Shown one piece after another: positions 1,207 through 33,897 of a stretch of DNA of 33,942 bases. A model generated the notes under the pieces. It saw nothing but the letters and a program-made list of their open reading frames with translations, was not told where the DNA came from and searched no databases. Made by a program: the position numbers and the translations under genes. The first letter of the stretch is position 1, and the number at the start of each line of letters is the position of its first letter. Source of the stretch: an uncultured Candidatus Saccharibacteria bacterium (GTDB lineage Bacteria; Patescibacteriota; UBA1384; XYA2-FULL-43-10; 1-14-0-10-43-13); the NCBI GenBank assembly GCA_964363695.1, contig CAYIJI010000001.1, positions 1 to 33,942 on the forward strand, read 5' to 3'.

Positions 1207-1416
1207 ATGAAAAATATTACAACTAACAAATTGCAGAACGACCTTTCGAAAGTTATTAAGGAAGTTGAGAGCGGGGAAGTTTATCAAGTAGCTCGGTACT
1301 CAAAACCGGTGGCTTATTTGGTTTCAAAAGAAGAGTTCGAGAGTCTTATTGGGGGACAGGATTGTAAGAAGTGTGTTAGTGATTTACGAAAAATCGCCAA
1401 GAACATCAAAGGCTAA
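1207..1416 (+). CDS. Phd/YefM-type antitoxin-like small protein; no partner toxin ORF seen
   Basis: 69 aa. The N-terminal pattern (LSKVIKEVESGEVYQVARYSKPVAYLVSKEEFESL) is typical of the Phd/YefM antitoxin fold. AT-rich repeats follow, not a toxin ORF. Confidence 0.5.
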   Translation: MKNITTNKLQNDLSKVIKEVESGEVYQVARYSKPVAYLVSKEEFESLIGGQDCKKCVSDLRKIAKNIKG

Positions 1417-4490: not shown

Positions 4491-4519
4491 TTGACAGGTT
4501 GGTAATTTTAATGTATAAT
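4491..4519 (+). promoter_or_regulatory. Consensus sigma70-type promoter of the DGR target gene
   Basis: TTGACA (4491-4496), an exact 17-nt spacer, then TATAAT (4514-4519). Confidence 0.65.
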
Positions 4520-4680
4520 AGCGCCCAGTTTAGTAATTTGACAATTCCTTTCCTTGGAGCTTAATTGGCTAGCTCACGTAAGATAGCCGGTTAAGCTCTA
4601 AGGAGCAAGAAAGGCGCAATAAATCCTCGAGCATTTGTATTTTACGATTTGCCGAGTAGCGCACGAAGGAGACGGTCGGA

Positions 4681-5604
4681 ATGGCTAAGACCATCGGAAC
4701 TGCAGGCTTCACAGAAATAACGCATGAAAAGTGCGGCAAGGGGATCGCTAGGGTAATAGACGGCGTCCCGCATGTTGAGTGCACACGGAGAGGTTGCCGA
4801 GAATGGGTGCCTCTTCATGGTTTGGTCCAGATGAGTGATATTCAGCAAGTGCTGGCTCTCATAGGATCAGGTCAGGTTTCGTTAGCCGATATTATGGCGC
4901 TAGCAGACCCGTTCACCGCTTATCGGCAGATCGATGGGCTATTCGTGGTTGGCGCGGCGGAGCTGGATCAGCTTTTCCGAACGGAATCTAATCCGCTTGG
5001 ACTCGATTCTGGCTGGGTTCCACAAATACCTGTTCCGAGTGATTTGGATCAGTGGATCCGTTCTGAGCAGTGGCGCACAGACAAGAATTGGCAGACTCGT
5101 GCTGCTCTTGTGTTGGTGCCACCAAAGATCGGGGATTTCCCATCCAGCCTGGTCAGCCAAAGCTATCTGCTTGGAGTGAGCCATGATGGAATCCCCCCTG
5201 GAATTATCCGCTCAGATGTTCTCTGGAGCAACTACTTCGTCCAGCCTAAATACAACTGGGCGATGGAACCGGCAACAGCAGAGTGGCAATGGATGCTCGT
5301 ATACGAGCATCCAGTCTTCATCACGCAGAAGGATTGGGACAAGCAACAGGGAATCGCGCGACAATATAGGATGCCGATTTCCACTGTTGCGCAAGACGCA
5401 TGGGGACTTAATATGGTTCATGCCGTTTACGGTGTTAGCCTCCGTTTGTCAACGTGGTCACGGACAAGTTCCCTCTGCGATGGCAACCCGCTCTACGTCC
5501 GCTCGATCGACGGCAGCGTCAGCGTCTATCAGGGCTGGGATCCTCGGTTTGCGGGCGGCGTTGTGGCGGCTTCCGTCCAGGGAGTTCCAGCACTTGATTG
5601 TTGA
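4681..5604 (+). CDS. DGR variable (target) protein; the C-terminal 38 codons are the variable repeat
   Basis: 307 aa, with AAGGAG 9 nt before the ATG. The 3' end (5472-5585) is the VR. I recognised no signal peptide or TM segment. The N-terminus has a Cys/His-rich stretch (EKCGKG...HVECTRRGC). A C-type-lectin-like fold of the VR domain is expected from DGR biology but cannot be verified by eye. Confidence 0.85.
   Translation: MAKTIGTAGFTEITHEKCGKGIARVIDGVPHVECTRRGCREWVPLHGLVQMSDIQQVLALIGSGQVSLADIMALADPFTAYRQIDGLFVVGAAELDQLFRTESNPLGLDSGWVPQIPVPSDLDQWIRSEQWRTDKNWQTRAALVLVPPKIGDFPSSLVSQSYLLGVSHDGIPPGIIRSDVLWSNYFVQPKYNWAMEPATAEWQWMLVYEHPVFITQKDWDKQQGIARQYRMPISTVAQDAWGLNMVHAVYGVSLRLSTWSRTSSLCDGNPLYVRSIDGSVSVYQGWDPRFAGGVVAASVQGVPALDC
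5472..5585 (+). repeat. DGR variable repeat (VR)
   Basis: Aligns without gaps to 5932-6045 at a constant 460-nt offset. There are 19 mismatches, all where the TR has A. The 3' 24 nt (tgtggcggcttccgtccagggagt) are identical to the TR and GC-rich, as for an IMH (initiation of mutagenic homing). Confidence 0.9.
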
Positions 5605-5633
5605 TAAATTGGCCTTTTTGGGTCTTGATCTTC

Positions 5634-5655
5634 GGGGTCGGCGGTAGCCGACCCC
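5634..5655 (+). terminator. GC-rich hairpin downstream of the VR (DGR homing-associated stem-loop and/or terminator)
   Basis: ggggtcggc / ggta loop / gccgacccc forms a 9-bp perfect stem 48 nt after the VR end, followed by attttc. Confidence 0.55.
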
Positions 5656-5931
5656 ATTTTCATGCCCTAGATTTGTCTTTTTTGTAATTTTTGTTATTAT
5701 ATATTCGAAAGTAGGTAGAGATTTTCGATTTACGAATCGGGAGCGCCGAAATCTCTGAACTTCAATTAGTCAGAATCTGTTAATCCAAGGATTAATGGAG
5801 AGAATGAACGAATGTTTGGAAACTCCGTGCCTGTTTTCTAGAGTAGGTGTTCGGGTTAACCGAGCTACTATCAAATAAAATACAGCTCCAAGAGAAATCA
5901 AAGAGCAGTGCACATAGGTGGAAAATAGGCT

Positions 5932-6045
5932 AATCTACGATGGCAACCCGCTCAACGTCAACTCGAACGACGACAGCGTCAACGTCAATCAGAACTGGAA
6001 TCCTCAGAATGCGGACGACGATGTGGCGGCTTCCGTCCAGGGAGT
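5932..6045 (+). repeat. DGR template repeat (TR), non-coding
   Basis: Adenine-rich counterpart of the VR. In the VR frame it reads AAC/AAT/GAC codons at the variable positions. It lies 30 nt upstream of the RT start. Confidence 0.9.
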
Positions 6046-6075
6046 CTCTAAACTATACAAAAGCATCCTAAAAAG

Positions 6076-7203
6076 ATGCTTTTGTTGCTTTTAACCAACC
6101 GCCTAACATTCTGCCGATTTCTTGCAGTTTTTCTTCCAGAAAAAGATATTTTTTCACAGATTATTAGTATTGAAAACTTATACGAAAGTTGGGCTGAATT
6201 TAAATACGGCAAGCGCAAGAAAGGCGATGTCCAGGCTTTTGAAAGAAAACTGGAAGATAATTTGTTCTCTTTGCGATACGATTTAAAGAATAGAACGTAC
6301 CGACATTCGGATTATACCTCATTTTACATCACTGATCCAAAATTACGCCATATTCACAAAGCGGAAGTACGAGATCGGATTGCGCATCATGCGATTTATA
6401 GAATTTTATACACAATATTTGATAAAGGTTTTATTTACGATTCGTATTCTTGCCGATTAGAAAAAGGCACGCACAAAGCTGTTGCTCGACTTAAAAATTT
6501 TACTCAAAAAGTTAGCAAAAACAATACAATTCCCTGTTATGCTTTGAAATGCGACGTTAAGAAATTTTTTGATTCGGTTGACCATGAAATTTTGCTTTCG
6601 TTAATCAAGAGAAAAATTGCTGATCCAGATACATTATTGTTGCTTGAAGAGATTATCGAAAGTTTTAGTAAACCAACTAAAACCGCTGGTGTTCAGCTAG
6701 ATCTTTTTGATTTGCATCGCGCAAATCGAGAGAGAGAGAGAGAGAGAGAGCTGCAGCCTTCGGCCGCTAGCGGTAAGGGAATCCCAATTGGCAATTTAAC
6801 CAGTCAACTTTTTGCCAATATATACATGAACGAACTTGATCAATTTGTTAAACACAAGCTGAAGATTAAATACTATCTTCGCTATTGCGATGATTTTATT
6901 ATCCTGGGTAATCAAGAGGAAGAGCTGCATAAAATCGTGGAAAGAATTGGCGAGTTTCTTTTCAATAATTTAAAGCTTTCTTTACATCCTAATAAGGTCT
7001 CAATACGAAAATTGAATCAAGGGGTAGATTTTTTAGGCTACATCGTATTGCCGTATTATACAGTTTTAAGGACAAAAACAAGGAAAAGAATGTTGAAGAA
7101 AGTCAATAAAAAGAATTTGTTTTCATATTTGGGGCTTTTGAAGCATTGTGATGGGTATGAGCAGTCCAGATTGATTCTTGATAAAGTAAAGCAGTGCGAA
7201 TGA
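6076..7203 (+). CDS. DGR reverse transcriptase
   Basis: SYSCRLEKGTHKA, LKCDVKKFFDSVDHEIL, GIPIGNLTSQLFANIYMNELDQF (the DGR-specific I/LGxxxSQ motif), YLRYCDDFIILG (YxDD) and LSLHPNKV...GVDFLGY. Contains an in-frame (GA)11 tract. The start codon is uncertain because the ATG at 6076 lies inside a hairpin. Confidence 0.9.
   Translation: MLLLLLTNRLTFCRFLAVFLPEKDIFSQIISIENLYESWAEFKYGKRKKGDVQAFERKLEDNLFSLRYDLKNRTYRHSDYTSFYITDPKLRHIHKAEVRDRIAHHAIYRILYTIFDKGFIYDSYSCRLEKGTHKAVARLKNFTQKVSKNNTIPCYALKCDVKKFFDSVDHEILLSLIKRKIADPDTLLLLEEIIESFSKPTKTAGVQLDLFDLHRANRERERERELQPSAASGKGIPIGNLTSQLFANIYMNELDQFVKHKLKIKYYLRYCDDFIILGNQEEELHKIVERIGEFLFNNLKLSLHPNKVSIRKLNQGVDFLGYIVLPYYTVLRTKTRKRMLKKVNKKNLFSYLGLLKHCDGYEQSRLILDKVKQCE
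6728..6750 (+). repeat. (GA)11G dinucleotide microsatellite inside the RT gene
   Basis: gagagagagagagagagagagag, translated RERERERE, lies just upstream of the IPIGNLTSQ motif. Confidence 0.95.
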
Positions 7204-12217: not shown

Positions 12218-12691
12218 ATGAAGAGTCGTATTATTAAAAATCAGTTTCTGGAGCGCGCATTCCGCACACATGTGAGGGTTTCGGAAGATATATTCGGCAG
12301 AGGCCGGATAAATATTCTGAAGCTGCTAGAACAAGAATTTCTTGCTAAGACAGAATCAGAAAACATTATTGAGGTGCAAGAAATTCCTGTTCTAAGGAAT
12401 GGGCATACAATGAAGTGGATACTCGGAGATCACAAGGAAGGCGAAGAAATTTGCCTGACGTGCGATCAGTGCGGATGGGTAAGTTTACCCATTCACATAT
12501 TTAAAGAGTATTTCCACTATTCCTCGTTTAGGGCCAACCTTCCAGAAGATGAGCGGGCACTTATGTCTGCTCGTATGCACTTGACGGAAGTGATGGGAGG
12601 CAAAGTAAGAAGTTATTGTCCACACTGTAAGAAACATTTAATTGCAGTGTTGGACACAAGGAAAGAAGAACGCCAGCCCGAACAGGGCTAG
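12218..12691 (+). CDS. Hypothetical zinc-ribbon protein (CxxCxxC ... CxxC)
   Basis: 157 aa, with AGGGGGA as RBS. Cys clusters are CLTCDQCG and CPHCKKH. No family recognised. Confidence 0.6.
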   Translation: MKSRIIKNQFLERAFRTHVRVSEDIFGRGRINILKLLEQEFLAKTESENIIEVQEIPVLRNGHTMKWILGDHKEGEEICLTCDQCGWVSLPIHIFKEYFHYSSFRANLPEDERALMSARMHLTEVMGGKVRSYCPHCKKHLIAVLDTRKEERQPEQG

Positions 12692-27795: not shown

Positions 27796-28434
27796 GTGTC
27801 AAAAGAAGTGGCGGGAGTGTTTTTGGGTTGTTCGGATCCAAGAGAAGAAGTGGATAGTAAAATCATCTGCCGAGGGGCTAGTCTGCTTTGCAAGCCTATG
27901 CCGGGAGTCGACTTTGGCGATCCACACAAACTCTTGGAGTACTGGAGGGAGTACGCAGATCCGGAGTGGGTGGCCATCTTTGGCCCTCACAAGGAGTGCC
28001 ATTGGCATCCGACTGAGGATGCTGCGGTAATGCATGCATGGGACTACGCCGAGCATTTCAACAGGAACGGCGTGTCATCTGCGTGCGTTCTGCTGGGCGA
28101 CCAGCCCGAGATGGTTTTGAATCACCTTAACGGGCATCCAATTGAGGAGCGGCTCCATGGGTTGTTCAAGAAGTCGGGTTGGGGGCTCGTCCACGGCGCA
28201 TATGCCGAAGCGGTCCATATTGGACAGCACTTCAAGTCAATGTGCTGGCCTCGGGTCTTGCGTCTTTCCAGCCCGTTCATCACGGACGCGATCGTGTCTC
28301 GGATTGGCAAGGTGCTGGATACTTTCCGGCGCGATCAGGTATTGCCTGTTCGTTTCTCGGAAGAAGTATCCGTTGACGAACGCCAGCGGTTAATAGAGCT
28401 CTTTTTGAGCCACGAACTACCGGTAGCAGCATAG
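27796..28434 (+). CDS. GC-rich hypothetical protein (GTG start)
   Basis: 212 aa, with AAGGAGG 8 nt before the GTG. It is much GC-richer than its flanks. The N-terminus has GCSDPR ... GPHKECH, a weak echo of the neighbouring gene's motif. Its 3' end is duplicated at 30026-30141. Confidence 0.65.
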   Translation: MSKEVAGVFLGCSDPREEVDSKIICRGASLLCKPMPGVDFGDPHKLLEYWREYADPEWVAIFGPHKECHWHPTEDAAVMHAWDYAEHFNRNGVSSACVLLGDQPEMVLNHLNGHPIEERLHGLFKKSGWGLVHGAYAEAVHIGQHFKSMCWPRVLRLSSPFITDAIVSRIGKVLDTFRRDQVLPVRFSEEVSVDERQRLIELFLSHELPVAA

Positions 28435-32647: not shown

Positions 32648-33010
32648 CTATGGTCCAGCCAATGACTTGGCGGCGTACGGAGCACCGCAAGGTGCAAGGC
32701 TTCTCCCAAAGGGAGTTGCTTCGCCTTTGCACCGAACGTGGTAAAGGAGCTTATCCTCCACCTGTACGCAGTCGAGAATGCACTTGCCGCCATCGATGAT
32801 GGCAGACAAGCCGGCTTTCATCGGCCGTATGAGCATCTCGACTGCCTTGAGATACGCCAGCTCGCTCGGGATCACAATCCTGCCGGATTGTGATGATTCC
32901 ACGACCTTAATTGCTTGGTCCAGCTTTTTGGGGAGAACTATCTCCTCACGACTGGTTCCTGCAACTAAGGTACTCATCGATACACTTCCCGCTTTCCCTG
33001 TAACTTCCAT
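32648..33010 (-). CDS. GC-rich hypothetical protein
   Basis: I prefer the start at MEVTGKAG (AGAGGGA RBS 5 nt upstream) to the ORF-track start at 33055. No family recognised. Confidence 0.55.
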   Translation of the reverse strand: MEVTGKAGSVSMSTLVAGTSREEIVLPKKLDQAIKVVESSQSGRIVIPSELAYLKAVEMLIRPMKAGLSAIIDGGKCILDCVQVEDKLLYHVRCKGEATPFGRSLAPCGAPYAAKSLAGP

Positions 33011-33028
33011 GTTATCCCTCTTTCGACT

Positions 33029-33043
33029 CTGGCAGTCTGCCAG
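33029..33043. promoter_or_regulatory. Perfect 15-bp palindrome in the leader of gene 32648-33010 (possible operator)
   Basis: ctggcagtctgccag lies between the predicted -10 element and the RBS. Confidence 0.35.
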
Positions 33044-33057
33044 TTGATATAGCAAAA

Positions 33058-33473: not shown

Positions 33474-33547
33474 TGGAGGTCTGGCCCGGACTTGAACCGG
33501 GGTACGCGGTTTTGCAGACCGCTGCCTAACCACTCGGCCACCAGACC
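33474..33547 (-). tRNA. tRNA-Cys (anticodon GCA), CCA encoded
   Basis: The reverse complement reads ggtctgg...gcggt-ctgcaaa-accgc...cccgg-ttcaagt-ccggg-ccagacc-t-cca, with discriminator U as expected for Cys. Confidence 0.85.
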
Positions 33548-33666
33548 TTGGTGTTTTATTCGGCGGTGCCACGTGAATCGAGCCGTAACTGTGCTTATTA
33601 GCCCCGTAAAATGGCAAGCCATCACGGGGCACGTAAAAATTTCGCTTATAACGCTCGATTTTTACG

Positions 33667-33741
<75 letters not shown>

Positions 33742-33823
33742 ACGTCGATACCGACGTTATCGTAGCACAAAAGCCTTGAATTTTTCAATAAGATGAACTA
33801 GAATATATTTAGTAAATTAATTT

Positions 33824-33897
33824 GCGGGTATCGTATAGCGGTATTATACGTCCTTGCCAAGGATGAGATACGGGTTCGACTCCCGTTACCCGCTCCA
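33824..33897 (+). tRNA. tRNA-Gly (anticodon GCC), CCA encoded
   Basis: Acceptor gcgggta/tacccgc, anticodon arm cgtcc-ttgccaa-ggatg, T arm acggg-ttcgact-cccgt. I could not resolve the D arm cleanly by eye. Confidence 0.8.

Follow-up and report, generated by a model that had tools for sequence, protein, structure and literature searches.

According to the sections of Roux et al. (2021, PMC8144416) that deal with them, the clade 2 targets of diversity-generating retroelements (DGRs) in the candidate phyla radiation (CPR, ultra-small bacteria) typically carry neither transmembrane (TM) segments nor other domains, and whether they are truly non-membrane-bound is left open there. The element considered here lies in a 33,942-nt stretch of contig CAYIJI010000001.1 (the whole of this analysed stretch is called the window) and comprises the gene of a DGR variable (target) protein, a template repeat (TR) and a reverse transcriptase (RT) gene. 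Like the CPR clade 2 targets as they are portrayed in those sections, the target protein has a C-terminal variable repeat (VR) and lacks a TM segment, a signal peptide and any Pfam domain. The setting is also alike, as the gene sits on a cellular contig that is probably of CPR origin (0.1-µm fraction of Hainich groundwater; one relative in a Saccharibacteria genome). A signal-less DGR target in CPR is an already known pattern, of which the window gene is a new and well-documented member. As far as the comparison with those sections goes, what is new is a conserved zinc-ribbon-like adaptor, a family-wide split in GC content within the cassette, and the decay of the cassette. On balance, and with slightly better than even confidence, we favor the explanation that the target is a small modular DGR variable protein, most likely cytoplasmic, that belongs to a rare family.

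Several other DGR targets provide points of comparison. Mtd of a Bordetella phage, TvpA of Treponema and the FGE-sulfatase-like targets resemble the window protein in having the VR in the last ~40 residues and an AAY-rich TR. They also share with it the alternation of variable and conserved hydrophobic residues, and C-type-lectin domains are the best, if weak, structural matches of the window protein. On the other hand, the VR consensus of the window family (DGxPLxVxSxxxGVxVxxxWxP...AASVQGVP) differs from that of the Mtd and FGE-like targets, and the near-terminal R-G-G motif of these two comparison families has no counterpart in it. Cytoplasmic DGR-diversified sensors have been described in multicellular bacteria and cyanobacteria, where STAND or kinase domains are fused to lectin-like domains (PMC10907252, PMC7159879). 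These proteins offer a precedent for a DGR target working within the cell as a diversified ligand sensor, although they are large and contain NTPase, kinase or effector domains, whereas the window target has 307 residues, with a zinc-ribbon-like module only and no detectable effector.

The window gene is a genuine DGR target, as had been stated in the original prediction. Over the 112 nt of the repeats, VR and TR differ at 17 positions, and 17 of these 17 mismatches fall at TR adenines, in codon position 1 or 2, changing 14 residues between aa 266 and 294. Read in frame, 21 codons of the TR carry A as their first or second base, nine being AAY; adenine mutagenesis can reach no stop codon, and ~10^17.8 protein variants are possible. 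Both repeats share a GC-rich 3′ end resembling an initiation-of-mutagenic-homing (IMH) site, GCGGCTTCCGTCCAGGGAGT, of which the window holds no third copy; likewise, no second VR was found across the window. The RT adjoins the repeats, and a hairpin follows the VR. This RT is 64-72% identical to the RTs of related cassettes and 30-47% identical to those of 50 viral DGR loci. In the predicted strands at aa 269-276 and 279-283, and in the loop that follows them, variable residues alternate (i, i+2) with invariant hydrophobic ones, a pattern which suggests that the variable residues lie on one exposed face.

The absence of a signal peptide, lipobox or TM segment, which had been noticed by eye, holds for the window protein and for its family. 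Export signals were screened by Kyte-Doolittle hydropathy and motif heuristics, and the family was scanned through 59 members of 230 aa or longer. Within the N-terminal 40 residues of the target, the highest 12-residue hydropathy mean is 0.82, as compared with 2.8 and 3.0 in two membrane or secreted proteins of the window, and neither a lipobox nor a Tat motif was found in the protein. Its sole mildly hydrophobic stretch (aa 57-75, hydropathy 1.7) is predicted to form two helices and contains D, Q, S and G. In the heuristic family scan, none of the 59 members showed a signal-peptide-like or TM-like stretch. A cytoplasmic location, which the original prediction had put forward as a possibility, is the most economical reading of these data, because the whole family lacks signals and about a third of its members have a zinc-ribbon-like N-terminal module.

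This module corresponds to the Cys/His-rich N-terminal stretch that had been singled out before as a possible zinc-binding site. The stretch is real (H15, C18, H30, C33 and C38) and conserved among relatives, the motif [CH]-x2-C ... [CH]-x2-C-x4-C being present in only 17 of the 59 family members. In five of them (P0008, P0010, P0014, P0018 and P0019) the first ligand is C instead of H, giving C-x2-C ... C-x4-C, an interchange that would be expected for a metal site. AlphaFold models the module as four short strands with a predicted local distance difference test (pLDDT) score of about 70, and a search of BFVD returned weak structural matches to small zinc-ribbon proteins; no curated zinc-ribbon model of Pfam or NCBIfam matched it. 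The module may bind zinc. The remaining family members have helical or differently Cys-rich N-termini, and in P0069 and P0071 the module is found together with a different C-terminal domain. Its occurrence in only part of the family and its pairing with another domain in these two proteins point to a target N-terminus that is an exchangeable adaptor.

The C-terminal part of the protein is modeled with greater confidence. The AlphaFold model of the full target has a pLDDT of 84, and that of aa 81-307 alone reaches a pLDDT of 89.8 and a predicted TM-score (pTM) of 0.90. In both Foldseek searches the top PDB match was 8oks, the C-terminal domain of Bd2740 (E 0.087-0.15, probability 0.89-0.92), with a TM-score of 0.58-0.60 normalized to the target, 105 aligned columns and 13% identity. 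Lower-ranked PDB matches were LOX-1, rhodocetin, the mannose receptor, DC-SIGNR and Mtd (E 0.5-2.3, with Mtd at 2.3). The domain of Bd2740 has been described as a calcium-free, trimeric version of the fold of C-type lectins, for which Mtd was the only trimer-matching homologue, and it forms the tip of a surface-displayed Bdellovibrio fiber made of a 627-aa protein (PMC10769870). Despite being the best Foldseek match, Bd2740 differs from the window protein in that it is surface-displayed and is not a DGR target. At the sequence level, links to known folds were rejected throughout, the searches of Pfam, PHROGs, PADLOC, NCBIfam and PDB profiles and the hhalign comparisons all being negative. No FGE-sulfatase or DUF1566 match was obtained (Pfam, E<=1), and by sequence the target family belongs to neither the FGE nor the Mtd group. 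The C-type-lectin fold envisaged in the original prediction finds weak support in structure prediction, where a lectin variant is the best match, and none in profile comparison; a lectin-like C-terminal domain is plausible but unproven.

The alternative to a cytoplasmic protein that survives best is that the target is exposed on or outside the cell without a classical signal, carried by a partner, by a pilus or secretion system or released by lysis, and works in the manner of classical DGR targets, its variable adhesin function being attachment to a host cell or substrate. We regard this as rather unlikely, though it deserves to be taken seriously. CPR bacteria live attached to other cells, and Cys/His zinc-ribbon modules are typical of cytoplasmic proteins; the first of these facts speaks for such an adhesin and the second against it. 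In its favor, moreover, the best-matching structure is that of the tip domain in a Bdellovibrio prey-recognition fiber, and a receptor-binding protein, Mtd, is also among the matches. Most cellular DGR targets are, in the account given in the relevant sections of PMC8144416, membrane-anchored binders of extracellular ligands. Exposure outside the cell is disfavored by the lack of any signal, TM segment or lipobox in the 59 members, and also by the gene contexts, all of which differ, so that there is no conserved neighbor that could act as an export partner.

The family to which the target belongs appears to be rare. Homologues numbered 16 among 5.8 billion clusters and 64 representative clusters among 1.84 billion, and within GTDB the family is found in one species representative, a Saccharibacteria metagenome-assembled genome. 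It has been found exclusively on cellular, CPR-like contigs. No match was found in phage, plasmid or IMG/VR (viral) collections, and on the strength of these zero matches a phage or plasmid origin of the target was rejected. As the original prediction had held, the protein contains no known domain: it had no match in Pfam (E<=1), PHROGs, PADLOC or NCBIfam, and a sequence profile search of the PDB gave nothing significant (best E 0.11). The homologous proteins are 41-59% identical across loci and are encoded in mutually unrelated housekeeping contexts, namely next to lepA, in a mur/fts cell-wall cluster, or beside pyrG/glmM, dnaE/rplS/rnhB or plsY/dnaJK, and here between folD and mnmA. An assembly chimera is unlikely, given that a second assembly (L004) has the identical arrangement and that the pattern recurs in relatives from other samples. 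The open reading frame (ORF) of the target begins at the first start codon past an in-frame stop, with AAGGAG 9 nt upstream. A further ORF of 154 aa (5183-5647, + strand) lies in another frame inside the target gene, and is most likely a by-product of high GC content, with its few stop codons, rather than a gene. The features of the locus are collected in Table 1.

Table 1. Features of the DGR cassette and its surroundings, in window coordinates.
Feature	Position	Strand	Basis
Sigma-70 promoter of the target, TTGACA-17 nt-TATAAT	4491-4519	+	12/12 hexamer positions
Long hairpin with 27-nt arms, 5′ leader of target mRNA	4551-4604	+	Inverted repeat
DGR variable (target) protein, 307 aa	4681-5604	+	ORF call, homologues and AlphaFold
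Zinc-ribbon-like module, aa 1-47, H15-x2-C18 ... H30-x2-C33-x4-C38	4681-4821	+	Motif conservation and predicted strands
Conserved alpha/beta domain, putatively ligand-binding, possible divergent C-type-lectin-like core, aa 81-307	4921-5604	+	AlphaFold and Foldseek
Variable repeat (VR), aa 265-302	5474-5585	+	112 nt paired with TR
GC-rich hairpin downstream of VR, 9-bp stem and 4-nt loop, followed by a T-rich tract	5634-5655	+	Sequence scan
Conserved structured RNA between VR and TR	5710-5933	+	Alignment of 6 loci
Template repeat (TR)	5934-6045	+	112 nt; 30 adenines
Post-TR hairpin, terminator-like	6057-6085	+	Conserved in relatives
avd remnant, last 28 of about 117 codons	6071-6154	-	tblastn with bAvd of L001, L012 and L016
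DGR reverse transcriptase ORF	6076-7203	+	RVT_1 1e-22; IGNLTSQ and YCDD motifs in translation

Several of these features concern the expression of the cassette. The promoter of the target has counterparts at other loci, where near-consensus TTGAC(A/T) promoters can be read upstream of the homologues. For the leader (4525-4690) the predicted folding energy is -60.9 kcal/mol (z = -5.3), and the stem of its hairpin is kept with compensatory changes in L001 and L012 and absent from other relatives. The hairpin downstream of the VR recurs in L001, L003, L008 and L012 with different stem sequences and preserved pairing; it would be a terminator, and possibly the stem-loop through which a DGR recognizes its target. 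The spacer between VR and TR has a mean identity of 63% over six loci (the window, L001, L003, L008, L012 and L016), and 16 of its 36 predicted pairs show compensatory changes. Positions 5784-5938, upstream of the TR, match the Rfam model RT-16 (RF03019) over its full length, at 34.7 bits (E 0.001-0.005), a score below the 50-bit gathering cutoff. The blocks CUxCxxGCC, AUAAAAUACAGC and GGCUA are common to the spacer and RT-16, and when the relatives of the spacer were compared with RT-16 in a larger search, no match was obtained at E 0.1. A weak promoter-like site lies at 5673-5700, upstream of the structured spacer RNA. Most simply, the spacer would form the 5′ domain of a TR RNA transcribed on its own.

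The cassette of the window has suffered a deletion. In relatives the order is target (+), a spacer of ~330 nt, TR (+), hairpin, avd (-) and RT (+), and a bAvd of 115-117 aa is encoded at the site where the window retains a remnant of avd. This remnant is 67-71% identical to bAvd residues 89/90-115/117 (E 2e-9 to 7e-8), and tblastn detected no other avd in the window. In comparison with relatives, ~285 nt are missing, comprising most of avd and the native start region of the RT. The homology of the RT to its relatives starts near 6145; the opening ~23 codons lie antisense to what is left of avd, across which the frame now extends as far as an ATG within the post-TR hairpin. In the Bordetella phage system, cDNA synthesis depends on Avd. 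Because avd is deleted here, and given this requirement, diversification has probably been halted and the VR frozen, unless Avd and RT are supplied in trans. The description of the target as hypervariable in the original prediction may apply to the past rather than to the present.

Cassette decay is common in the target family. In L006 (3560-3660) and L007 (730-830) VR and TR are collapsed to one copy, the target ending in TR-flanking sequence (...VQVVSKL) directly followed by the hairpin, avd and RT, apparently through recombination between the two repeats. L003 (4903-5489) and L008 (8809-9401) have a target and a TR with 12-17 adenine-specific differences and no RT or avd within the fetched flanks, so that the RT would have been either supplied in trans or lost. 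In L002, L013 and L015 no TR was found. The L002 family member (5934-6833) is situated between murG and murC, in a cell-wall and division cluster, with no TR or RT nearby. Lastly, the cluster P0004 (52 members, 90% identity) derives from loci with collapsed VR and TR and shows few and scattered differences; ongoing diversification was rejected for it, as such differences do not amount to hypervariation.

In the explanation that we favor, a zinc-ribbon-like adaptor (aa 1-47) would be joined by a short helical linker to an alpha/beta ligand-binding domain (aa 81-307), whose last ~40 residues would form a beta-hairpin and a loop. The DGR would rewrite alternate, presumably outward-facing residues of this hairpin through adenine-specific mutagenic retrohoming from the TR, with ~10^18 variants within reach. 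The target would be expressed from its own consensus promoter with a structured leader, while the TR would be made as a separate structured RNA composed of an RT-16-like 5′ domain, the TR and a 3′ hairpin. The ~285-nt deletion would have taken most of avd and the native RT start, leaving a VR that records past diversification. Candidate ligands, sensed within the cell, would be an invader or a protein of a host cell. Some observations pull the other way. The fold matches are statistically weak, with no PDB or BFVD match below E 1e-3, and hhalign gave a probability of 0.2% against the Mtd-like and FGE-like families, both of them canonical for DGR targets and drawn from phage loci whose RTs are related. 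Surface clustering of the variable residues is deduced solely from their alternation pattern, the confidence of the model in the zinc-ribbon region is moderate, and two thirds of the family have other N-termini instead. CPR cells may export proteins via routes that leave no recognizable signal. In addition, the cassette may still be alive, given that its RT ORF has stayed intact, and no mechanism accounts for the GC offset of the target.

This offset is a second distinctive property of the locus. The original prediction described the target gene as far GC-richer than its neighbors, along the whole gene and not in the VR alone. The latter point stands, with 54.0% GC for the gene (55.5% at third codon positions, GC3), 52.6% outside the VR, 66% in the VR and 47-67% in individual 60-nt lines, but the contrast with the surroundings is about +14 points and not about +30. 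The value of about 28% once given for folD is not borne out, as this gene has 39.6% GC overall and 27% in its first 60-nt line only. The window as a whole has 40.1% GC and its 29 other ORFs a mean of 40.2% (sd 4.9), which places the target 2.8 sd above them. The GC-rich block coincides with the target ORF and the TR copy; at 35.3% GC, the RT that belongs to this cassette is set apart from its target, and the cassette as a whole is not GC-rich. Homologues exceed their flanks in 15 of 15 loci, by +5.8 to +20.5 GC points (mean +14.2). In four cassettes the RT and avd genes have 33-38% GC and the targets 51-61%, and within the same four the RTs are 64-72% and the targets 44-57% identical. The high GC content of the target is a long-standing trait of the family, kept up independently of the host genome and of RT and avd, which are AT-rich.

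The excess is not shared by DGR targets at large. In 33 other DGR loci with related RTs, the targets exceed their flanks by a median of +5 points, typically by +1 to +7; as many of these loci are near-duplicates, the Mann-Whitney p-value of the comparison is illustrative only. Three of these targets reach +10 to +13, and two of them, L059 and L060 (+10 and +13), have a low third-position GC of 0.12-0.13. For the nearest RT relatives, L017 and L057, which have AAA_5-type targets, the difference is only +1 point. GC richness as a general property of DGR targets was rejected on this median and on the value of the nearest relatives. A comparable excess was found in an ORF of the window that has no family match and only three homologues, an ORFan of 212 aa (27796-28434, + strand) with 54.6% GC and sharp boundaries. 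In two related contigs it occupies the same place, after a Pro_CA_2 (carbonic-anhydrase-like) gene near the ATP synthase operon, and its homologues are 55-70% identical, with 50-53% GC against flanks of 34-42%. Since this ORFan keeps its GC excess in three genomes and in a conserved order, a GC excess is an unsafe marker of recent transfer in the genomes of this lineage. A third GC-rich island in the window (32648-33055, - strand, 52.9% GC) holds a 135-aa ORF without a family match and lies beside a tRNA cluster, the Cys, Phe and Gly tRNA genes being at 33474-33897.

From the GC contrast the original prediction had suggested that the cassette was acquired horizontally in recent times; the donor would then be GC-rich and the target not yet ameliorated to the composition of the host. 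The distance of the target from the mean of the other window ORFs is compatible with this explanation, as is the position of the cassette between folD and mnmA, for its homologues lie elsewhere in other genomes and the unit must have moved at some time. Nevertheless, both the RT and what remains of avd in this cassette equal the host in AT-richness or surpass it, and the offset is present at 15 of 15 loci although the proteins are only 41-59% identical. Moreover, no member of the family was found in a GC-rich genome or in a phage, plasmid or viral contig, and the unrelated ORFan shows the same excess in conserved gene order. Recent acquisition is not supported by these data and we consider it quite improbable; transfer of the whole cassette was rejected, RT and avd being AT-rich in all four cassettes compared. 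The least probable explanation, which comes close to being untenable, is that the DGR itself imposed the excess, with adenine mutagenesis or selection against adenines spreading past the VR and stripping A from the entire gene: the VR is indeed the GC-richest part, as A-to-N replacement predicts, and DGR targets generally lie a few GC points above their flanks, but outside the VR A and T drop equally at third codon positions (-0.11 each) and C (+0.10) and G (+0.12) rise equally, this symmetry of the shift being the reason why adenine mutagenesis is not the cause, while L002, L013 and L015 still show the offset with no TR or RT nearby and the nearest targets outside the family, those of AAA_5 type, hardly depart from their flanks.

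Two further observations in the window are recorded in their own right. A c-di-GMP-I-GGC riboswitch aptamer (RF03167; 12069-12155, + strand; 70.9 bits against a cutoff of 59 bits) lies directly upstream of a 157-aa ORF (12218-12691) that has a faint zinc-ribbon match only. A Phd/YefM-type antitoxin gene is present at 1207-1416 (+ strand), with no obvious toxin ORF called beside it.

More speculatively, and as a tentative suggestion to which we give little weight, the GC excess shared by the target family and at least one unrelated ORFan may reflect an undescribed gene-specific process in CPR bacteria and, as a distinct idea, the protein may work as a minimal receptor inside the cell. For the first, GC-biased gene conversion at genes prone to recombination, recurrent exchange of just the target for copies from a GC-richer gene pool, or strong selection on the composition of mRNA or codons may come into consideration. 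For the second, a zinc-ribbon adaptor joined to a diversified lectin-like domain may serve in the sensing of invaders, or in telling self from non-self, in ultra-small symbionts. The locus draws attention to a compositional split inside a single small genetic element. Whether it is within or outside the cell that the DGR targets of CPR bacteria function is named explicitly as an open question in the sections of PMC8144416 referred to above. The target family offers a compact test case for it, with a protein of ~300 aa, a confident model and a conserved N-terminal module resembling a metal-binding site, and it supplies its own natural controls in the form of loci with an intact DGR, with avd lost, with VR and TR collapsed, and with no RT or TR nearby.

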